Positions 1-17,610 of a stretch of DNA of 17,751 nt are shown piece by piece. The notes below the pieces were generated by a model. It was given only the letters and a program-made list of their open reading frames with translations. It did no database searches and was not told where the DNA came from. A program made the translations under genes and the position numbers. Each line of letters begins with the position of its first letter. Position 1 is the stretch's first letter. Where the stretch lies: the NCBI GenBank assembly GCA_051874735.1, contig JBJEGD010000006.1, forward strand, positions 52,647 to 70,397, in the 5' to 3' direction. The DNA comes from Candidatus Bruticola sp. GTDB taxonomy: Bacteria; Vulcanimicrobiota; Xenobia; Xenobiales; Xenobiaceae.

Positions 1-148
1 CATTTGCTCCCGGACCAACTGGACGCTGACCGCCAGGAGCCATCGGCTGGCGAGGTACATTTGCTCCCGGACCAACTGGACGCTGACCGCTAGGAGCCAT
101 CGGCTGGCGAGGAATATTCGCCCCTGGACCAACTGGACGCTGACCGCT
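1..148 (-). repeat. 57-bp coding tandem repeat (at least 2.6 copies), 19-aa unit [10 protein letters not shown](V/I)PRQPMAP(G/S)
   Basis: 1-57 and 58-114 are nearly identical (catttgctcccggaccaactggacgctgaccgc..); 115-148 is a diverged partial copy. The array is cut by the window edge. Confidence 0.93.
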
Positions 149-3055
149 CCCAGAATGACGGTAATCCGCAGCCATACCTTCAGGGACATCATACTGGCCA
201 GGATTTTGGGCCACACTAGGCTGATTATAAGCATCTTGCGGAGGATACCCCCCCTGCTGGGGGTAGCCACTAGACTGAGAGTAACCGCCAGGCTGCCCAT
301 AACCACCAGGCTGAGAATAGCCGCCAGGTTGAGGGTAACCGCTAGGCTGAGAATAGCCACCAGGTTGAGGGTAACTGCCAGGCTGAGAATAGCCACCAGG
401 TTGAGGGTAACTGCTAGGCTGAGAATAGCCGCCAGGTTGAGGGTAACCGCCAGACTGAGGATAGCCATCAGATTGAGGGTAACCGCCAGACTGAGGATAG
501 CCGCTGGGCTGACCATACGAGCCTTGAGAAGTATAATTGGGAGCAGAATCAGGAGTAGCCACTACTCCAGAAGCAGAACGCGGATGCGCGGAAGCAGATG
601 CTCCCGCGGCAGAGTTGCCGCTCTCATCACCGAAAGTATCACTCAAAGCCCGATTGTCCAAGGAAAAAACCACTTTATCGCCTTCATCAGCCATATCAGC
701 CCAAATAAGGGTATTCGGCGGCACCTTATGGCGAAGCACGTATTCAGCAAACGGCCTAGTCAACCAAGTATCGATAGCCCGGTTCAGAGGGCGGGCGCCA
801 TACTCAGGATGATAGCCTTTGTCGAGCAGGAAATTTATAACATTTTTCGTTACGTGTAAATCGACCTGTCGGCTTTCCTTAATTCGTTTTACGCATTTTG
901 ATAAATTAATATCGACTATGCCCTGTAAATCTTCACGTTTGAGAGTTTTAAATATAATAATTTCATCAATGCGGTTTAAAAACTCCAGCCGGAAGTGACC
1001 GCGCAGAGCGGCTTGATAAACCTCAGGCATATCGTCCAACTGACCGACATACCCCTGATCGGTAGGCAGCAAATCGGCCAAAGGATCCTTCATTTTGGCT
1101 AAAGCGCCCATCTCTTCGTCGCCGGTAGCTTTCTCTAAAGCAGCTCCAGCAGCGGCCATCTGGGCAGAGGCCATATCGAGGGCTTTACGAGATCCTAAAT
1201 TGGAAGTCATAATAATAATAGAATTAGTAAAGTTTACCGTGCGTCCGCGCGCATCTGTGAGACGTCCATCGTCAAAAACTTGCAAAAACAGATCGAAAAC
1301 ATCGGGATGGGCTTTTTCTACTTCGTCGAGTAAAATTACACAGAAGGGCTTGGTACGCACAGCTTTAGTCAGCTGGCCCTCCCCTTCATAGCCCACATAG
1401 CCTGGAGGAGCACCGATAAGACGAGCCACAGAGTGCTTATCGTGGAATTCAGACATATCCAAACGAATCATATCGCGCTCTGAGCCGAAGAGGAACTCTG
1501 CTAAAGTTTTGGCTAACTCAGTTTTTCCTACACCGCTGGGGCCCAAGAAAAGGAATACACCACTAGGACGAGTAGGAGACGAAAAGCCCACTCTTACCAC
1601 TCTTATAGTGCTGGCCACAGCGGCTACTGCATGATCTTGACCAACAACACGGCCGCGCAGCAAATTTTCCATATCGAGCAGGCGAGCCTCTTCTTCATTG
1701 GCAATGCGAGAAATTGGCACCCCTGTCCAATCGGCGACAACTTCAGCGATGACCTCTTCTGTAACTTCCTGCATGCCCTGCCCCTGACAGTTGCCCCGAG
1801 TTTTTATACGTGCGGCCGCTTCATCGATAAGATCGATAGCCTTATCGGGCAAATTGCGATCTGGCAAAAAGCGCACTGACAGCTTTACAGCAGCTAAGAG
1901 AGCTTCATCGGAAAATTGCACATGATGGTGCTGTTCATAGCGCTCTCGAAGTCCTTTAAGAATTTCAAAAGCATCTTCCTCGGAAGGCTCGCTGACGAAC
2001 ACTTGTTGGAAACGGCGTTCCAAAGCAGGATCAGCCTCAATATAACGGCGATATTCATCGATGGTGGTGGCTCCCATAACAGCTAAATCGCCCCTGGCTA
2101 AAGCCGGCTTCAAAATGTTGCCAGCATCCATTCCTCCGCTGCCACCAGCCCCCACAATTTGATGAATCTCATCAATAAAAAGAATAATTTTGTTATCTTT
2201 GCTAACTTCTTCGATGACTTGCTGTAGACGTTTTTCAAAGTCACCGCGATGGCCAGCACCCGCGACTAAAGAACTTAAACTCAACTCTATAAGATGATGA
2301 TCTTTAAGGAGATCAGGCACTGTACCTTCAGCTAAACGCTGCGCTAAACCGTAAGCCACAGCCGTCTTACCTACGCCAGCCTCACCGACTAAAACGGGGT
2401 TAGACTTAGTCTTGCGAGTTAGCACTTCTAAGACACGGCGCACCTCATCATTTCGTCCGACTACGGGATCCATTTTTTTCTGACGTGCTAACTCTGTAAG
2501 ATCGCGGCCATATTCTAACAGCTGTTTATGTTCTCTGGCGAACTTGCGTCCATCAGCAGTCATGTTTTTATCAGCTCCGCGGTTAAAGAAACCACCTCCG
2601 CCAGAAGACTTAGGCGACTCTTGACGGACGACTCCGCGAATCGAATCGCGCAGTTTCAGCAGCTCTACACCACGGTTGAGAAGCACGCGACAAGGCACGC
2701 TGCGCCCCTCACGCAAAATAGCCGTAATCACATGTTTCGGTTCTACACGCAGTGCCTGAGCAGCCTCGGCTTCTTCAGGCACTATAGTTTTCATAATACT
2801 GCGGTAGCGCGGAGTTTCCGGAATTCCGTCCCAAAGAGGGGGATCATCTTGAGGAGGCACCAAATTGGCAATGCCTTCCTCTAACTCACTGAGAGGTACT
2901 CCTTCATCGGCAATCGCTTCCGCTAACGAGCGATCCAGCTGACAGGCGGCAGCAAAAAAATGCTCTACTCCCAAATAGTAATGTTTCCATGAACGGGAAA
3001 GTTCTCCAGCTCTGGCTATTACCCGTTCTGTTGCTTCGCTGTTATTTATGGCCAT
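1..3055 (-). CDS. Hsp100/Clp class I AAA+ ATPase (ClpA/ClpC-like) with long low-complexity C-terminal tail; 3' end lies outside the window (at least 1018 aa)
   Basis: Manual translation from ATG 3055 ([34 protein letters not shown]) has no stop down to base 2. It shows a Clp N-domain, [22 protein letters not shown], Walker A1 GEAGVGKT (2386-2363), Walker [28 protein letters not shown], Walker A2 [50 protein letters not shown] and YGARPL. The start is 1 nt after the rlmD stop. Confidence 0.95.
212..535 (-). repeat. 18 x 18-bp coding tandem repeat, hexapeptide Y(P/S)Q(P/S)GG
   Basis: Translation: [108 protein letters not shown]. The central part alternates, giving a 36-bp higher-order unit. 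Confidence 0.95.
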
Positions 3056-3056
3056 A

Positions 3057-4484
3057 TTACTTCCGAACTATGTGCGCTACACACTCAACATGATAAGTTT
3101 GAGGGAACATATCGATAGGCTGTACTTCCAAAACAGAATAGCCCTTTTCATGAAGTATTCCCAAGTCTCGGGCTAAGGTAGAAGGATTACAGGAAACGTA
3201 AGCCAAGCGAGGGATACGCATCTTAGCTATAGTATCCAGCACTACAGGATCGCATCCTTTCCGCGGAGGGTCTAAAACAGCGCCGTTAAAGCTGGTTCGC
3301 CGCTGCAGAGGAGAGCCTTTGTGACAAAGAGCAGGCAGTATTTTTTCCACCGTGCCATCCATAAAAGTAGTGTTAGCTAGATTGTTTAGATCGGAGTTAA
3401 CTACTGCATCTTCTATGGCATCCTGACATTCGTCTATGCCGAAGACGCGCTTAGCTTGACGAGCCATATACAAAGCCAGCGAACCGACTCCGCAGTAAGC
3501 ATCGAGAATAATGTCGCGAGGCTGAATCTGCAGATACTGATCTATTTGATTATATATGGCTTCAAGCCCCTCAATATTGACTTGGAAAAATGAGTTAGCT
3601 GAAATATTGAATTTTAAACCGGCAACCTCTTCAATAATATGATCGCTTCCCCACAGTACGGAGTTATGGGAGCCCAAAATCACGTTAGAAAAATGTGGAT
3701 TGAGGTTGAGCACTACCCCGCACAGCGAATGCACTCGTTTGCGTACAATATCGACGAATTCGCGCACTTTAGGCAGACGAGGCTGACTAGAGACGATAAC
3801 TAACAAGGTTTGGTTCGAATAGAAGCCGTGGCGAGCGACCAAATAACGCACGGCACCGCTGCCATCTTCACTGTTGTAAATAGGCCACTGCAAACGTTCT
3901 ATAGCTTCACGGCAAGCCGCCGACAGCTCATTGTTGACTTCATGCTGAATAGCGCAGTTATCAACTTTAACTATAGAATGGGTCCCTTTGGCATAGTATC
4001 CAACATAAGGATGAAAACGTGGTGCCTCTTCGTTGTCGCTGCATTCTTGACGCTGCAAATAAGGCTTAGCGCCTAAAACCATCTGCATTTTGGAGCGGTA
4101 ATTCCAAGGATGCTTCATTTTTTTACAAGGACGCACCTTAACGCCATCTAAGCCGGCGATATGGCGCAAAGCATCTTGGACCATTTTAGTTTTAAATTCT
4201 AATTGAGAGTCATAATTGACATGCTGCAAGTGGCAGCCGCCGCATTCACTGTAAACTGGACAGCGCGGTTGAACACGGCGCACTGAGGGGACAATAATTC
4301 TGTGAATACGAGCACGTCCGTAATTTTTTTTAAGTTCGGTTATATGGGCTTCTATTTTATCACCAGGAGAAGCACCAGGTACAAAAAGTACGAAGTTGCC
4401 CACTCTCCCAACAGCTTCCCCCCCAACGGCGAAATCGTTGATAGTCAGCTCTACCTTCTGACCTATTGATAAAGAATCGGCCAT
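3057..4484 (-). CDS. rlmD: 23S rRNA (uracil-C5)-methyltransferase RlmD/RlmCD family
   Basis: N-terminal TRAM domain, CPVYSECGGC Fe-S motif, SFFQVN, DAYCGVG SAM-binding motif, LDPPRKG, YVSCNPSTLARD, DMFPQTYHVE. Confidence 0.95.
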   Translation of the reverse strand: MADSLSIGQKVELTINDFAVGGEAVGRVGNFVLFVPGASPGDKIEAHITELKKNYGRARIHRIIVPSVRRVQPRCPVYSECGGCHLQHVNYDSQLEFKTKMVQDALRHIAGLDGVKVRPCKKMKHPWNYRSKMQMVLGAKPYLQRQECSDNEEAPRFHPYVGYYAKGTHSIVKVDNCAIQHEVNNELSAACREAIERLQWPIYNSEDGSGAVRYLVARHGFYSNQTLLVIVSSQPRLPKVREFVDIVRKRVHSLCGVVLNLNPHFSNVILGSHNSVLWGSDHIIEEVAGLKFNISANSFFQVNIEGLEAIYNQIDQYLQIQPRDIILDAYCGVGSLALYMARQAKRVFGIDECQDAIEDAVVNSDLNNLANTTFMDGTVEKILPALCHKGSPLQRRTSFNGAVLDPPRKGCDPVVLDTIAKMRIPRLAYVSCNPSTLARDLGILHEKGYSVLEVQPIDMFPQTYHVECVAHIVRK

Positions 4485-4718
4485 AAAAAAACTCCGTAAA
4501 AAAAATTGCTCTAACCCTGCCAGCAGGGAAAGGCTGCCGCCCTTGGCTAACTAAAATTTAAAAACTGCCTGTTTCTTACCGCCATACGCTTCTGCCACCA
4601 TCCTTATAAAGCTGGGAAGTTATGGCAGGAAGTAAAAATATACAGAGAAACACGCCTTCAGATGTTCAATTTCAGGAAGTCTTTTTCCTACTCAAATATA
4701 TTTTAAGGAGTTCATCGC

Positions 4719-4934
4719 TTGAATAAAGGCAATTTGTCAGTAAATGTACAGTCGGCCCAGTCTTATTTAGAAGAGGCTCTAGAAAAATTAGACGATATTA
4801 TTGACTTTCTGCACAACTTAAGCGAAGAAGAGCTGGAAAGTTCAGCTCCGGCTGGCGGTATTGCTCAAATAGAGCGCGCCCAAGCTCTAACTTCTCAGGC
4901 TCTATCCGCTCTAGACAAAGTTAAATTTCACTAA
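4719..4934 (+). CDS. Small acidic helical hypothetical protein (71 aa)
   Basis: TTG start with AAGGAG 8 nt upstream; amphipathic helical pattern; occupies otherwise non-coding space upstream of tatA. Confidence 0.65.
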   Translation: MNKGNLSVNVQSAQSYLEEALEKLDDIIDFLHNLSEEELESSAPAGGIAQIERAQALTSQALSALDKVKFH

Positions 4935-4997: not shown

Positions 4998-5297
4998 ATG
5001 CCGTTCAATTTAGGTCCGGGAGAACTTATCATATTAGCAGTAGCAGCTCTGCTTCTTTTTGGTCCTCAAAAACTTCCCGAGATAGGCAGATCGCTGGGAG
5101 AAGCTCTAGGATCGTTAAAAAAAGCTTATAATAGCGCATCAAGTTTAGAAGAAGCGAAAACCTCCCCTGCCAGTTCCTCAGCAGCTGAAGATACAGTTTC
5201 CCGTACGTCTTCAAATTCGTCTGTAGATAGCCTATCAACAACAGACGATCAACTATCTCCCCATAACAGCTTACAAGACAAAAAAACTGACATTTAG
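4998..5297 (+). CDS. tatA: Twin-arginine translocase TatA/TatE family subunit
   Basis: LGPGELIILAVAALLLFGPQKLPEIGRSLGEALGSLKKA: TM helix, FG hinge and amphipathic helix, followed by a Ser-rich disordered tail. Confidence 0.93.
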   Translation: MPFNLGPGELIILAVAALLLFGPQKLPEIGRSLGEALGSLKKAYNSASSLEEAKTSPASSSAAEDTVSRTSSNSSVDSLSTTDDQLSPHNSLQDKKTDI

Positions 5298-5356
5298 GTG
5301 CCAAACAGTTTATTAACTAATTTCAGCTTTTATGCTCAGTTTTCAATCTTAAGCGC

Positions 5357-5412
5357 AAAAAAACGAGGTTTTCTGCAGGCATTTAACCTACCTACGGAAG
5401 CCCCGTTTTTTT
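5357..5412. terminator. Probable bidirectional intrinsic terminator between convergent tatA and lipoprotein genes
   Basis: A7-CG-AGGTTTTCTGCAGG ... CCTACGGAAGCCC-CG-T7 is an imperfect inverted repeat flanked by A7 and T7. Confidence 0.65.
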
Positions 5413-5489
5413 CATTGGTATATTTTGCAGCAGCTCACCCTAAACTGAGCAAAAAATTTCGAGCGAACCGATCTTAAAAAGCCACTGAG

Positions 5490-6059
5490 CTATCTCGAGC
5501 GGCGTCCCTTTCTCGGCTTTGACTGAGGTGCTGCCTTTTTAGCTTGATAAATAAACAGCGGCGGCAGGTCTAGAGAACGTATCTTCCAGCCTCCTCTAGT
5601 CTGCTCAAATTCCCAAATCCAAGGGGGAGCATTAGGATACTTTAAATCGTAGACCTTAATTAATGCCACTTTGCCTGATACTCGCTCGTCGCCCACCGAT
5701 CTAGTCATATAAACACTTTTAGTGGAAGCCATAGAGAAGTATCTTTCTAAACCTTCTGAAAAGCTCTTAAAATTGACCTTCATTTTGGCGTCGACACTTA
5801 GAGCAGCGTAGGCTTTTTTATAGTTTTTAGTTTTGACATTGTTTAAAAATTCATTGGCTACTACGAAAGGACGACGGCTTATATCAGGCGGAGGGATAAA
5901 CTTATCATCACTTTTCTTGTTGATATTAACTTCCGGAATCGAGCAGGCCGCCATTAGACAGACAACCTGAATCAGCAAGACAATAACAGCCAGCCTCTTA
6001 AGTTTTCTCATTTTGAATAAATTGGATACCTTAATTGACAACATATTGACCGCTTCCAT
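5490..6059 (-). CDS. Putative lipoprotein, possibly NTF2-like fold (alternative start at ATG 6011)
   Basis: Basic N-region MRKLKR, hydrophobic stretch, lipobox-like MAAC; FLNNVKTKNYKKAYAALS and GGWKI patterns typical of small NTF2-like lipoproteins; AGGAG upstream of 6059. Confidence 0.7.
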   Translation of the reverse strand: MEAVNMLSIKVSNLFKMRKLKRLAVIVLLIQVVCLMAACSIPEVNINKKSDDKFIPPPDISRRPFVVANEFLNNVKTKNYKKAYAALSVDAKMKVNFKSFSEGLERYFSMASTKSVYMTRSVGDERVSGKVALIKVYDLKYPNAPPWIWEFEQTRGGWKIRSLDLPPLFIYQAKKAAPQSKPRKGRRSR

Positions 6060-6103
6060 CCCGCTCCTAAGTTTTTACCGACAACTAAAACATTATCGTT
6101 CAA

Positions 6104-7777
6104 TTATAAATGCACAATTTCAGCATAGCTGATGTAAGCGCCAGCTCGGATAATTCTAATAACAACTTCTTTGCCTACTCTATCAGCAGCGCGCTCCACT
6201 TCAACTAAGCAACCGTCGACTATAGCTAAAGCAGAACCGTTTTCCGACTCGCTGTTTTCCAAAATATCTACCCGAGCCTGTTGTCCGACAGAAAGCAAAG
6301 ACCGATCGCTGGCCGAGAGCTTATCTATACAACTGACACTGAAACGCTCCGGATGAATATTGTCTGAAGCACGAACTATAATTACAGATTTAGTCTCTTT
6401 CGCAATCTGCTCAGCCTCAGATCCGTTAGGACCGACAAAGCGATAGGCGGCCGCCGGTGAGAGAGTAACGACTGCAGCTTCATGCTTACTTAAGCCGCCC
6501 ATTTCCCGCAGCAAATTGCGACGAGCCCGCAAAGCCACAGACTTGGGAGATAAAACCTTGCCGCGGCCATGGCATATGGGGCAAACATCGCGCATAATAC
6601 CATCTAAGTCTTTGCCTTCACGCTTGCGAGTTATCTGCACCAACCCCAGCTCAGTCATACTCACCAAATGAGTTCGGGTACGATCTTTTTTAAGCTCATC
6701 GCCCAAAGTTTCCAAAATTTTGCGCTGGTCGTCGGAACTGTCCATATCGATAAAATCGACAATAATAATACCAGCCATATCGCGCAAGCGAAGTTGACGA
6801 CAAATTTCTTTACAAGCTTCTAAGTTAGTGCGCAGAATAGTTTCTGCTAAATTGTTTTTACCGATATAGCGTCCGGTATTGACATCGATTACCCAAAGGG
6901 CTTCAGTGCGATCGACAATCAGATATCCGCCGGAATCAAGCCAAACCCGACGCGACAGGGCGTTATCAATTTCCTGCTCAATACGATACATATCGAATAA
7001 CGGATAAGTATCTGTATAAAGATGAACTTTATCTAAAAGTTCAGGGGCAGTATGTTCTAGGCGCTCGCGCATATTCAGGTATTCCTGACGATTGTCTATA
7101 ACCAGACGATCGACCTCTTCAGTGAAGAGATCGCGCAGTATTTTACCTATAAGATCGAGTTCCTGATGGACTAGAGCAGGAGCCTGGCAGTTCTTAGCCT
7201 TAGCTTGAACCTTATTCCAAGCTTTAACCAAATAATCTAGATCCATCTCAAGTTCGCTGCGATCATGTCCTTCTGCTGCGGTACGAACGACTATGCCCAT
7301 ACCTTCAGGACGAAGTTCGTCAGCAATACCACGCAGGCGATCGCGCTCCTGCTCAGTAGAAATGCGGCGAGAGACTCCCACATATTGAGCAGAAGGGAAT
7401 AAAACTAAATAACGACCTGGAAGGGTAATATAAGAGGTGATACGGGCGCCTTTAGAGCCAATAGCTTCTTTAACTATCTGCACTAAGGTTTCTTGTTGGG
7501 GGCGGACTATCTCCGCAATAGCGGGCTTAGTGAAATTGTTATCTCCATCACCTAACCCCGCTACTGCATCGCCGGCACACAAAAAAGCATTGCGCTCTAA
7601 ACCGATATCGACAAAAGCGGCATTCATGCCAGGAAGGACATCAGCTACTCTGCCTTTGAATATGCTACCGACCTGACGTTCTTCACGATCTATCAAAATT
7701 TCTATGGGGCGTCCGTCTTCCAGGACCACAGCCCTTCCCTCGCGATCGTCAATGGAAATCAATATTTCTTTGTACAT
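6104..7777 (-). CDS. rng: Ribonuclease E/G family (RNase G-like) with C-terminal TRAM-like domain
   Basis: S1 domain GSIFKGRVADVLPGMNAAFVDIG, TEALWVIDVNTG, RLRDMAGIIIVDFIDM, CPICHGRG Zn-link. The start is revised to ATG 7777 (MYKEILISID), which matches family N-termini; the 77 upstream codons in the ORF track do not look like protein. Confidence 0.92.
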   Translation of the reverse strand: MYKEILISIDDREGRAVVLEDGRPIEILIDREERQVGSIFKGRVADVLPGMNAAFVDIGLERNAFLCAGDAVAGLGDGDNNFTKPAIAEIVRPQQETLVQIVKEAIGSKGARITSYITLPGRYLVLFPSAQYVGVSRRISTEQERDRLRGIADELRPEGMGIVVRTAAEGHDRSELEMDLDYLVKAWNKVQAKAKNCQAPALVHQELDLIGKILRDLFTEEVDRLVIDNRQEYLNMRERLEHTAPELLDKVHLYTDTYPLFDMYRIEQEIDNALSRRVWLDSGGYLIVDRTEALWVIDVNTGRYIGKNNLAETILRTNLEACKEICRQLRLRDMAGIIIVDFIDMDSSDDQRKILETLGDELKKDRTRTHLVSMTELGLVQITRKREGKDLDGIMRDVCPICHGRGKVLSPKSVALRARRNLLREMGGLSKHEAAVVTLSPAAAYRFVGPNGSEAEQIAKETKSVIIVRASDNIHPERFSVSCIDKLSASDRSLLSVGQQARVDILENSESENGSALAIVDGCLVEVERAADRVGKEVVIRIIRAGAYISYAEIVHL

Positions 7778-16284: not shown

Positions 16285-17610
16285 ATGAACTTAAATGCAG
16301 CAGAATACAATTTATCTAGGGAGGCCTCAGCTAAAACTTCAACCCAACAGGAGTTTTCTTGGGATATTGTCGATTTTATGCTTGAGGGTAAATCTCCCAT
16401 CGATCTAGCCGCACTGACCGCCGAAGATCGCGCTCAAGCTCATAAATTTTTGCTCAACTACGGATACGATTACAACAATAAAGAAGCTAAAGATACTGTA
16501 GATGAAATTTTTGCTGAAGCGCTGCGCTTTATTAAAGCTTATTTTGTACATGGACACAGCAGCTGCCCCACCTATTTTACTATTCCCTCAGAAATAGAGC
16601 GGCTTAACGATGTGCGTGACTTGCTCATTTGGGCTTCCGGCCCGCGAGGTACCGAGCGCCAAGCTTGGTCATGTGCTATATTGCGCGTCATGCACACTAT
16701 TCACCATTTAGATAACACTATGCGTGCGGAATTCTTCCCTGAAATTAAGCGACAGATTCTTGATAAATTTCGCCAAAATATTACTGAAGTAAATGGACAA
16801 GTTTATTTAGGTTCCAATAGTGATATGCTGCCGCTTTATGGAGTTTTCTACAAAGAAGAAAAAAGTCGAGACAGCTTAATTTTGAAACTGCTGCATAAGC
16901 CTAAAAATGTAGCGGAGAAAATTCATGACCGCTTAGGTGTTAAATTAGTAACCTACACTAAGTTAGACGTTTTACGCGTACTTTATTATCTATATACTCA
17001 TAATGTAATTATGTTTGCTAATCTTATTCCCGGTCGCAGCCGCAATACTATTCTCGATATAGAAAAATGTCGGGCTATTTTTGCTGAACTGTTAGAAAGC
17101 GAAAAAGAGAGCGACTGCATCGAGCGAGAAAAACGATTGGATAAATTAGTCAATCAACTTAACACTATTTCCGCTCAAGAATTGGCTTCTATGGCTGAGG
17201 AAAAGAAGCATTATAATCCGCTGTCTAGCTCTGATTACCAATCTCTGCAGTTTACAGTTCAAGAATTAGTAAAACTAGAGAATCCAGGATTTTTTAAAGC
17301 CAGACGTCTGCGCACCCAATTAGAAAAATATCATTTAGGCCCCGATTTAGAAGGTTTACTACAAGAACTGGAAGGACCAGTAGCTGAGCAAGAAATTAGC
17401 ATACTTTTCCCTTTAGAAGTGCAAATTATCGATAAAGAAAACTACATGCAGAGTATTGACGGTACTGCTTCTCACGACGCCTACAAACAGAGACAGCAAG
17501 ATCGCGCTTGTCTGCGTGTTTTGGCTGGTGTATTCGCTATACACCCAGATTTAAATCCCCTGACTAAAACCGACCGCCAATCGGATCAAATTAAGCTTTC
17601 CTTTTTGTGA
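16285..17610 (+). CDS. Uncharacterised protein with RelA/SpoT synthetase-like motifs (resembles TIGR04552/TIGR04562 family)
   Basis: EEKSRDSLILKLLHK..IHDRLGVKLVT..DYQSLQFTV..PLEVQIID..ASHDAYK parallels the RSH synthetase motifs in order. The family assignment is from recall. AGGTGA RBS upstream. Confidence 0.7.
   Translation: MNLNAAEYNLSREASAKTSTQQEFSWDIVDFMLEGKSPIDLAALTAEDRAQAHKFLLNYGYDYNNKEAKDTVDEIFAEALRFIKAYFVHGHSSCPTYFTIPSEIERLNDVRDLLIWASGPRGTERQAWSCAILRVMHTIHHLDNTMRAEFFPEIKRQILDKFRQNITEVNGQVYLGSNSDMLPLYGVFYKEEKSRDSLILKLLHKPKNVAEKIHDRLGVKLVTYTKLDVLRVLYYLYTHNVIMFANLIPGRSRNTILDIEKCRAIFAELLESEKESDCIEREKRLDKLVNQLNTISAQELASMAEEKKHYNPLSSSDYQSLQFTVQELVKLENPGFFKARRLRTQLEKYHLGPDLEGLLQELEGPVAEQEISILFPLEVQIIDKENYMQSIDGTASHDAYKQRQQDRACLRVLAGVFAIHPDLNPLTKTDRQSDQIKLSFL

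Follow-up and report, generated by a model that had tools for sequence, protein, structure and literature searches.

A distinct Clp/Hsp100 family of the Vulcanimicrobiota with long C-terminal tails and, in a gut lineage, a periodic tyrosine array

Introduction

Hsp100 unfoldases rank with the best-studied protein machines, and their regulation is known to run via N-domains, M-domains and adaptors. Here we describe a gene for a class-I Clp/Hsp100 ATPase whose product continues past its folded body into a long C-terminal tail rich in regularly spaced tyrosines. The gene lies at one end of a 17,751-nucleotide stretch of DNA from Candidatus Bruticola sp., the whole of which we refer to as the window (GenBank assembly GCA_051874735.1, contig JBJEGD010000006.1, positions 52,647 to 70,397; in our notation G000:C6:52647-70397, where G000 is the source genome). 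This genome comprises 2.47 Mb in 42 contigs and is 92% complete. In the NCBI taxonomy, Candidatus Bruticola belongs to the class Candidatus Xenobia of the Vulcanimicrobiota (= Eremiobacterota), a phylum with a cultured member in Vulcanimicrobium alpinus (PMC9758169). The related records are, from their titles, metagenome-assembled genomes (MAGs) of primate gut, human gut and rumen.

The closest described proteins are the Clp/Hsp100 ATPases themselves. The tailed Clp resembles ClpC and ClpA in its Clp_N domain, two AAA+ rings and D2-small domain, as well as in an insertion at the D2 site of their ClpP loop, and like ClpA it has no long coiled-coil. However, it differs from both in its His D1 pore loop, the absence of an M-domain or UVR motif, a G[YF][VA]GQLD loop, a tail of ~350 residues and a linked FHA gene. 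ClpB is the top NCBIfam model and the D2 module of ClpB gives the best matches in the PDB, but the M-domain is missing here as well. Hsp104 carries a short acidic C-terminal extension that serves as a docking site; the present tail has about ten times that length, with almost no charge in its Tyr array and a basic, aromatic tip.

Parallels to the tail are found outside the Clp proteins. The homo-oligomeric SSB of Escherichia coli ends in a disordered linker, rich in Gly, Gln and Pro, and an acidic docking tip of the DDDIPF type, and its phase separation has been reported. As in SSB, the linker of the tail varies between lineages while the tip stays, although the protein family is a different one, the tip (PGPFSRRL...W) is not acidic and a periodic Tyr array is missing from the SSB linker. 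The low-complexity domains of FUS, EWS and TAF15 are of the [G/S]Y[G/S/P]Q type, and yeast Sup35 contains the oligopeptide repeat PQGGYQQYN, which the tail unit GGYPQQ closely resembles. The tail shares with the FUS-type domains some 20 evenly spaced aromatics, few charges and an Arg-rich region beside the Tyr-rich one. Unlike FUS and Sup35, it is bacterial, sits on an unfoldase, contains much more Pro, has a perfect periodicity that derives from recent DNA repeats and has no Asn-rich region.

Two bacterial systems combine further elements of the locus. In the type VI secretion system (T6SS), the FHA protein Fha1 is functionally tied to the Hsp100 protein ClpV1 and to a Hanks-type kinase. The prion-forming domain of Clostridium botulinum Rho is carried by a bacterial hexameric ATPase. 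The threonine-phosphorylation pathway of type VI secretion is the subject of one paper (PMC5995506), and another surveys the insertion domains of Rho (PMC11347177). The present locus likewise brings together an FHA protein, a Clp/Hsp100 and a Hanks-type kinase, but T6SS genes are not found nearby, and the FHA protein is a bare domain of 94-99 residues translationally coupled to the ATPase. The tailed Clp is, like Rho of C. botulinum, a bacterial hexameric ring ATPase with a low-complexity, prion-like segment. In Rho this is an Asn/Gln-rich N-terminal insertion in an unrelated, RecA-type helicase, whereas here the AAA+ unfoldase carries it at its C-terminus as a Tyr/Pro/Gln/Gly repeat.

Results

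Modular organization of the tail

The clp open reading frame (ORF) starts with an ATG at position 3055, runs along the minus strand and is open at the window edge (position 2); the window thus holds its first 1018 codons (2..3055), as established from the ORF list, Pfam and extension into the genome. The initial annotation, made from the window, had recognized a Clp/Hsp100 unfoldase whose body ends near 662 in DKVVFS and whose frame stays open for at least 220 more codons. The ORF list and Pfam bear this out: the folded body closes with DKVVFS at residues 793-798 (679-662), and 220 further codons lie within the window. Followed beyond the window, the full ORF reaches a stop at G000:C6:52264-52266, giving a nominal protein of 1145 residues and a complete tail of ~350 residues.

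The tail is built from a series of distinct modules, all on the minus strand. Directly after the folded body comes SDTFGD (residues 805-810, 626..643), a motif of the D-T-hydrophobic-G-G type by its counts in the different clades, followed in the translation by a Ser/Ala/Gly-rich linker (residues 811-840, 536..625). Next are 18 hexads with a Tyr every six residues (residues 841-948, 212..535), identified by a spacing test, a tandem-repeat scan and comparison with relatives. A conserved 11-residue island (residues 955-965, 161..193), the PEGM..Y island of the relatives' tails, separates this array from 19-residue Arg/Pro repeats (2..145). The latter correspond to a 57-nt tandem repeat (TRF period 57, 93% matches), run into a scaffold gap and have two copies beyond it. 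The complete order is therefore D-T-hydrophobic-G-G motif, Ser/Ala linker, ~20 Tyr in Gly/Pro/Gln/Ser spacers, PEGM..Y island, Arg/Pro block, W..Y island and a terminal motif, PRPPQPGxPGPFSRRL...W. Within G000, PFSRRL preceded by a Pro-rich context occurs only in the tailed Clp.

The 18 tyrosines occupy residues 841, 847 and so on to 943, with 17 consecutive spacings of exactly six, so that the periodicity, the nearly uncharged hexads and the Ser/Ala/Gly linker are as first annotated (window 535-212; 2 charged residues in 108). None of 100,000 shuffles of the tail gave a run of 17 such spacings, and the longest shuffled run was 5. The hexad consensus is Y-(P9/S5/G2)-Q16-(P11/S4/Q3)-(G11/S5/D2)-(G13/S3), with the first and the last two hexads degenerate. 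Over its 108 residues the array contains 26 Gly, 21 Pro, 19 Gln, 18 Tyr and 18 Ser, the two charged residues both being Asp. This is the composition of prion-like, FUS-type domains, that is, low-complexity G/S/Q/Y/P sequence with evenly spaced aromatics and few charges. At the DNA level the array is a tandem repeat with a period of 18/36 nt (6.8 copies of 36 nt, 86% matches).

The tail is predicted to be intrinsically disordered. AlphaFold2 was applied to the last 375 residues of the protein of the closest relative, a MAG of Candidatus Bruticola sp. referred to as L011. The mean predicted local distance difference test score (pLDDT) was 45.5, with values below 50 over most of the tail. Helices and strands are limited to D2-small (model residues 14-66), with no secondary structure beyond. 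Since the alignment was shallow (7 rows), the model lends weak confirmation to the disorder that is already suggested by composition.

Continuity of the reading frame

The left end of the window adjoins a 100-N scaffold gap (C6:52547-52646) inside the 57-nt (19-residue) repeat, which leaves the number of these repeats in G000 uncertain. The repeat register allows the gap to be bridged. The left flank ends at unit position 44 and the window begins at unit position 1, so at least 13 bases are missing; 13 and 100 leave the same remainder when divided by three, and the frame read through the Ns is therefore the one expected from the register. To the left of the gap there are two more 19-residue repeats and then the non-repetitive end ...EGAWSQEEYRNG...VPRPPQSGAPGPFSRRLNPGSDHNEGENWR. 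Of the 16 scaffold gaps in the assembly, each of exactly 100 N, at least two (C6, C32) interrupt tandem repeats in coding sequence; the repeat-rich proteins of G000 are therefore systematically incomplete. One public sequencing run was listed as sharing words with the stretch (0.06), and no RNA run was; its contigs leave window positions 151-900 uncovered and so bear on neither the junction nor expression.

A gap of this kind raises the question of whether a frameshifted, chimeric or non-coding repeat has been joined onto a normal clp gene, all the more as repeats yield long ORFs in several frames. L011, the closest relative in the species-representative collection (94% identity in the best segment), argues otherwise. 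Its clp gene is complete and ungapped, encodes 1119 residues and has the module order of the window gene, with 17 Tyr in one spacing-6 run, 22 Tyr in total, five 19-residue Arg/Pro repeats and an identical ending. The same ungapped architecture is found in eight other gut-lineage assemblies, counting L011 (L011, L012, L013, L019, L032, L034, L090 and, in part, L095). They share the continuous frame and the C-terminal end while differing at synonymous positions, and in G000 the next gene begins 2 nt past the clp stop. Neither a stop or frameshift near 660 nor close homologues without the tail, two of the signs that the initial annotation had named as fatal to its proposal, were seen. With eight other assemblies agreeing in frame and C-terminal end, the tail is, as judged from these genomes, no assembly artefact, and a joining error is scarcely credible.

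Tails across the family

A family alignment and a FastTree phylogeny were built from 117 of the 120 best database homologues, namely those long enough to align, together with ClpB and ClpC of G000. The source names of the 120 are Eremiobacterota, Vulcanimicrobiota, Xenobia and Armatimonadetes, with some others that are probably mislabelled. A tail of more than 60 residues after D2-small is present in 80 of the 117, and tail type follows the tree. Twelve members form a clade with Tyr/Gly/Pro/Gln/Ser tails, in which seven database entries and the window gene end in PGPFSRRL. The direct sister of this clade (6 members) is tail-less, its proteins ending 13 residues after the body in GYVGDTLGG. Further clades are marked by a Pro-rich tail ending in PWSxFRRPE (FRRP clade, 16 members), a tail ending in PFSPLRSPK (PLRS clade, 32 members) and a Lys/Pro tail with PILKQR...MPMKGP motifs (16 members).

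ClpC-like proteins elsewhere end soon after D2-small, as had been assumed from the outset: in 35 ClpC-like loci of other phyla, found by the same scan, tails measure 0-89 residues, and the D1 pore loop has Tyr wherever it is recognizable. The family is thus characterized by a long disordered tail that has a short aromatic-Ser...Arg motif close to its end, and the sequences indicate that the Tyr array is the gut-lineage version of this family-wide C-terminal tail. A protein search with the tail region alone (residues 836-1018) returned only the query and one unrelated hypothetical protein, the composition correction of HMMER making prevalence unreadable from such a search.

Conservation within the tails is concentrated in short islands. 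Tyr-tail proteins share D-T-[FLY]-G-G after the body, (I/V)PEGM..Y, G.W[SQ]..G.Y and PRPPQPG[AS]PGPFSRRL, with a Trp 0-2 residues before the C-terminus. The terminal module (~45 residues) aligns in all 11 of the Tyr-tail sequences compared, and related tips are found in 15 members of the FRRP clade and 29 of the PLRS clade. As in SSB-type proteins, a variable linker is thus combined with a docking tip kept across lineages. The motif next to the body is more restricted, its strict D-T-hydrophobic-G-G form being present in 8/8 Tyr-tail and 6/6 sister short-tail proteins, 0/15 of the FRRP clade and 3/28 of the PLRS clade. Taken together, it is highly probable that the tail is a real, conserved, disordered element with a docking tip.

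Apparent selection on the tyrosine array

The repeat unit of the array differs between relatives, as does its regularity. It is six residues long in the window gene and L011, seven (GGYPQQQ or GGYPQQP) in P0002-4, L012, L013, L019, L032 and L090, about ten in P0006, and irregular in P0005, P0007, P0008 and L034. Despite these differing units, the tails of the Tyr clade all hold 18-26 Tyr, 6-17 Arg and 0-2 Lys. A search of homologues for the Tyr periodicity, which the initial annotation had proposed, therefore finds it kept, with the unit free to change. The Arg-rich block is always distal to the Tyr block, with mean relative positions in the tail of 0.30-0.43 for Tyr and 0.61-0.84 for Arg.

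The codons of the window array point in the same direction. All 18 Tyr positions encode Tyr, by 11 TAT and 7 TAC codons, and 16 of the 18 Gln positions encode Gln, with both CAG and CAA in use, while positions 2, 4, 5 and 6 of the hexad vary in amino acid. Compared with L011 over 226 aligned codons of the tail, 73 are identical, 61 synonymous and 92 non-synonymous. Of the Tyr columns, 19 are kept (7 of them via synonymous codons) and 3 changed. Tyr in the array appears to be under selection, because its codons vary only synonymously, most of its columns are kept relative to L011, the number of Tyr is stable and the order of Tyr before Arg is fixed.

The same array could instead be a by-product of 18/36-nt tandem duplication, with the tail serving as an entropic spacer that presents the terminal motif. 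This would fit the nature of the array as a plain DNA tandem repeat whose units change in length and number from one species to another, the sister-clade tails that differ in composition yet keep a related tip, the similar repeats in unrelated ORFs of G000, and the high Pro content. It is harder to reconcile with a Tyr number that holds at 18-26 across differing units, with variation at the Tyr and Gln codons of the array that is synonymous only, with the retention of 19 out of 22 Tyr columns when 92 of 226 tail codons have changed non-synonymously, and with an Arg-rich block that always follows the Tyr block. We regard a mere spacer as rather unlikely, though as the strongest competitor to a role for the tyrosines.

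The repeats in other ORFs are of the same general kind. Three of them in G000, all on the minus strand, carry Tyr-periodic Pro/Gln/Gly tandem repeats: an ORF with ~24 GYGQPAx heptads that is itself cut by a 100-N gap (G000:C32:10351-11448), one with 27-residue repeats containing GYPQSAP (G000:C26:140282-142069), and one with nine 13-residue AQAQPYSQASRTT repeats (G000:C16:5355-6956). It is possible that their products are homotypic partners of the tail.

The ATPase core and family identity

The folded body contains the complete domain set of a class-I Clp/Hsp100, with PF02861, PF00004, PF17871, PF07724 and PF10431 all above the Pfam cut-off; the coordinates that follow are again on the minus strand. 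A Clp_N repeat forms the N-terminal domain (residues 16-63, 2867..3010; PF02861, 27.9 bits against a cut-off of 20.7). The D1 AAA+ module with its lid (AAA and AAA_lid_9; residues 221-435, 1751..2395) has its Walker A motif GEAGVGKT at 2363-2386 and its Walker B motif at 2162-2182. The D2 AAA+ module (AAA_2; residues 496-699, 959..1570) contains the Walker A motif GPSGVGKT, a GYVG pore loop and an intact Walker B motif. It is followed by the D2-small domain (residues 705-782, 710..943; PF10431, 71.8 bits). With the Walker A/B pairs of both rings and the D2 GYVG loop intact, the core is probably an active double-ring unfoldase.

The pore loops reveal a difference from other class-I proteins, which have Tyr in both rings. 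In D1, the position held by Tyr in ClpB and ClpC is occupied by His 269 in the family alignment (2249..2251), with the loop reading GHRG here and KYRG/RYRG in ClpB and ClpC of G000; D2 keeps Tyr in its GYVG loop. This substitution is a property of the family, as the residue is His in 112 of the 117 aligned homologues, Tyr in 4 and Asn in 1. In addition, there is no M-domain in the tailed Clp family, only ~35 residues separating the D1 lid (ending at residue 435) from D2. The lack of an M-domain and the His in the D1 loop suggest that the protein is neither a DnaK-coupled disaggregase of the ClpB type nor a MecA-gated ClpC.

Comparison with family models leads to a similar conclusion. The best-scoring NCBIfam model is that of ClpB (TIGR03346), with 827 bits against a cut-off of 1232 and a match broken into three pieces; the models of ClpA (TIGR02639, 698 against 993 bits) and ClpV (TIGR03345, 692 against 885 bits) follow. 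None of the NCBIfam equivalog cut-offs is reached, and the ClpK and ClpG models are far below theirs. Membership in ClpC is contradicted by the absent M-domain and the His of D1, and a ClpV of a secretion system by the surroundings of the gene, where no T6SS genes were found among neighbours that are housekeeping genes. In the tree, the 117 homologues form a single clade separate from ClpB and ClpC of G000 (FastTree local support 100). By models and defining features, the tailed Clp thus is a distinct Hsp100 family of the phylum, outside ClpB, ClpA, ClpC and ClpV. In a full-text literature search covering the articles themselves, neither this family nor any Hsp100 with a comparable tail was described. 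As far as that search shows, the family, with its His pore loop, missing M-domain and FHA partner, is a branch of the Clp/Hsp100 tree not described before.

A ~50-residue insertion in D2 (residues 627-677, minus strand), visible as a gap relative to ClpB structures and in the family alignment, lies at the place of the ClpP loop in ClpA and ClpC and ends in GYVGQLDD (1031-1054). HMMER alignments stop at this insertion. Across the family it ends in a conserved G-[YF]-[VA]-G-Q-L-D, which reads QGYVGQLD in the window protein. The canonical ClpP-docking tripeptide is hydrophobic-Gly-hydrophobic, and in most of the 117 members it is not recognizable, in a part of D2 where the alignment is weak. The initial annotation had placed the tail on the ring face where ClpP would dock; with the canonical tripeptide not recognizable in this weakly aligned loop, that placement is not upheld.

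The changed loop is relevant to another way in which the tail might function, namely on its own ATPase. It might inhibit the enzyme as a pseudo-substrate, fold back as a tether onto the N-domain or pore, or bind a peptidase in place of a lost ClpP loop. Several features would suit such a role: ClpB and ClpC are regulated by an M-domain, which this family lacks, x-G-[YF]-[VA]-G-Q-L-D takes the place of hydrophobic-Gly-hydrophobic at the ClpP-loop position, G000 has two ClpP genes, and the tip contains G-P-F. However, core, loop and FHA gene are all retained in the tail-less sister clade, and the tip motif is unlike the known ClpP-docking tripeptides. We therefore consider self-acting tails improbable.

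G000 encodes other members of the Clp system. Its own ClpB has a long M-domain and its ClpC-like paralogue comprises 876 residues; as the genome already has these two, the tailed gene is its third class-I Hsp100 paralogue. There are also the two ClpP and a ClpX-like ORF adjoining one clpP. The 20S proteasome was considered as a partner of the C-terminal aromatic residue and dropped, the sole Proteasome-family match in G000 being a 190-residue ORF that, from its size, we take to be HslV.

The linked FHA gene

The clp stop codon (TAA) is followed by two bases and then the ATG of an ORF for a bare FHA domain (94-99 residues; G000:C6:51974-52273, equal to L088:9975-10274, minus strand; Pfam E = 4e-15). 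This gene lies 3' of clp in 23 of 25 related loci, the contigs of the other two ending inside clp, and its product is 54-98% identical across the loci. Residues G30, R31, S44, H47 and N66 are invariant in 19 orthologues, and these Gly-Arg, Ser..His and Asn residues we take to be those that bind phosphothreonine. On the other side of clp, a gene for an RlmD/TrmA-type methyltransferase with a TRAM domain (3057-4484, minus strand) ends one base before the clp start. Such an RlmD-like gene is found 5' of clp in 22 of the 25 loci, so rlmD-clp-fha looks like a conserved operon.

At E <= 1e-15, the FHA profile has a match in 147 of the 151 genomes sampled from the phylum (a tally that includes the unpublished genome G127). 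The Clp-FHA pair is less widespread: in 20 further, more distant genomes, a crude motif regular expression, which missed at least one true member (L127), found a Clp-like ORF beside the best FHA match in ~11, and in none of the six genomes from family f15. We therefore rejected the pair as a phylum-wide feature; as far as these genomes show, it is typical of Xenobia and several other lineages.

Complex prediction was carried out with Clp (residues 1-840) and the FHA protein, both supplied as alignments. The three scores were 0.55, 0.59 and 0.04 (median 0.55), with the highest of three controls at 0.00. At least 40% of contacts are common to the runs, and the partner has a pLDDT of at least 76. 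Of 80 solved complexes, 58 attain the mark used for this prediction, as do 2 of 110 mismatched pairs; with a score of 0.60 or below, however, only 7 of the 80 attain it, and both mismatches do.

A candidate ligand site for the FHA domain is the Thr of the D-T-hydrophobic-G-G motif (Thr 807 in the window protein). As a phospho-site for the whole family this motif was rejected, given its counts of 0/15 in the FRRP and 3/28 in the PLRS clade; its absence from most members of both means that it is no universal FHA site.

The presence of a phospho-reader in the operon, together with the regular spacing of the tyrosines, also brings to mind the C-terminal domain of RNA polymerase II, with the Tyr array as a phosphorylation scaffold read by partners. 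In support of such a phosphotyrosine code, a Hanks-type kinase, a Fic protein and a second FHA protein are encoded 3-6 kb away in the gut clade. On the other hand, FHA domains recognize phospho-Thr, not phospho-Tyr, the array contains one Thr and no conserved kinase consensus, and the kinase neighbourhood occurs in only 6 of 25 loci. Such a code seems very improbable.

A possible mechanism and its weight

These findings can be combined into a model in which the tail would act as a modular, flexible, multivalent tether, present six times per hexamer. Its conserved short motifs would dock a partner, and the Tyr and Arg blocks would serve as weak pi-pi and cation-pi stickers. The stickers could then cluster hexamers with each other, or with clients that contain Tyr/Pro/Gln repeats, and thereby raise the local concentration of unfoldase. 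The small FHA protein probably binds the unfoldase and couples the machine to Ser/Thr-kinase signalling, in line with the complex prediction, whose verdict was 'weak support'. This combination of disordered tether, docking motifs, Tyr/Arg stickers and FHA link is our best explanation, and as a whole we hold it to be evenly poised between right and wrong. Its sticker component, considered separately, is a tentative reading that falls a little short of even in our estimation.

Several observations weigh against this account. What speaks for a sticker function is composition, patterning and conservation. Tails in the sister clades are also long and end in a related tip, yet they contain almost no Tyr, being rich in Pro/Arg/Glu or in Lys, and the direct sister has no tail, so the Tyr array must be dispensable for the basic function of the family. 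Pro makes up 21 of the 108 residues of the array, unlike in FUS-type domains, which favours an extended spacer. The Tyr/Pro/Gln repeats in other ORFs, named above as possible partners, could equally reflect a bias of the lineage toward slippage-prone repeats. With regard to the FHA link, the gene is present even in clades without the D-T-hydrophobic-G-G motif, its Clp neighbour is found in only about half of the further genomes and not in f15, and the complex prediction reported no interface.

Condensate or prion behaviour of the tail is plausible from its composition. A stronger version would be a self-organizing condensate Hsp100, in which ~20 Tyr followed by ~15 Arg per tail drive reversible clustering, alone or with other Tyr/Pro/Gln-repeat proteins, and a phosphothreonine switch read by the FHA partner controls recruitment or activity. 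We consider this version distinctly unlikely. If true, it would be a prokaryotic counterpart of the FUS-like sticker-spacer domains, joined to the very kind of machine by which such assemblies are dissolved in eukaryotes.

The modular tail with its Tyr array, Arg/Pro array and conserved tip, its occurrence throughout the family, the His of the D1 loop and the FHA link all go beyond the initial annotation. They describe a lineage-specific Hsp100 family whose regulation, if there is any, runs through a long disordered tail at the C-terminus, with its conserved docking motifs, and a linked phosphothreonine reader, and in gut Xenobia the tail carries a Tyr array as regular as any eukaryotic low-complexity domain. 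Should the Tyr and Arg blocks be stickers, they would offer a natural and genetically compact system for how aromatic valence and spacing control assembly and for the targeting of a disaggregase-type motor to condensed material, as well as a test of phase separation in a deep-branching, uncultured bacterial phylum.

Neighbouring genes

The kinase neighbourhood mentioned above lies in the adjoining segment L088 (G000:C6:42000-52546), 3-6 kb beyond clp-fha, and encodes a trypsin-like protease-FHA fusion (3653-4894), a Fic-domain protein (5001-6236) and a Hanks-type Ser/Thr kinase (6240-7139). The cluster is common only to the closest gut relatives (6 of 25 loci). Directly after the FHA gene there is a 306-residue ORF with no Pfam match (L088:8772-9692, minus strand), which is found in five gut-clade loci at 77-85% identity.

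Rfam and tRNA scans across the window gave no matches. A 441-residue ORF on the plus strand (16285-17610) has no Pfam match at E <= 1e-5. The same is true of a 189-residue ORF on the minus strand (5490-6059), which has a hydrophobic N-terminus and adjoins RNase E/G in 11 of 25 loci. Finally, the N-terminus of the 99-residue ORF at 4998-5297 (plus strand) resembles, by eye, the twin-arginine translocase components TatA/TatE, and a Ser-rich tail comes after it.

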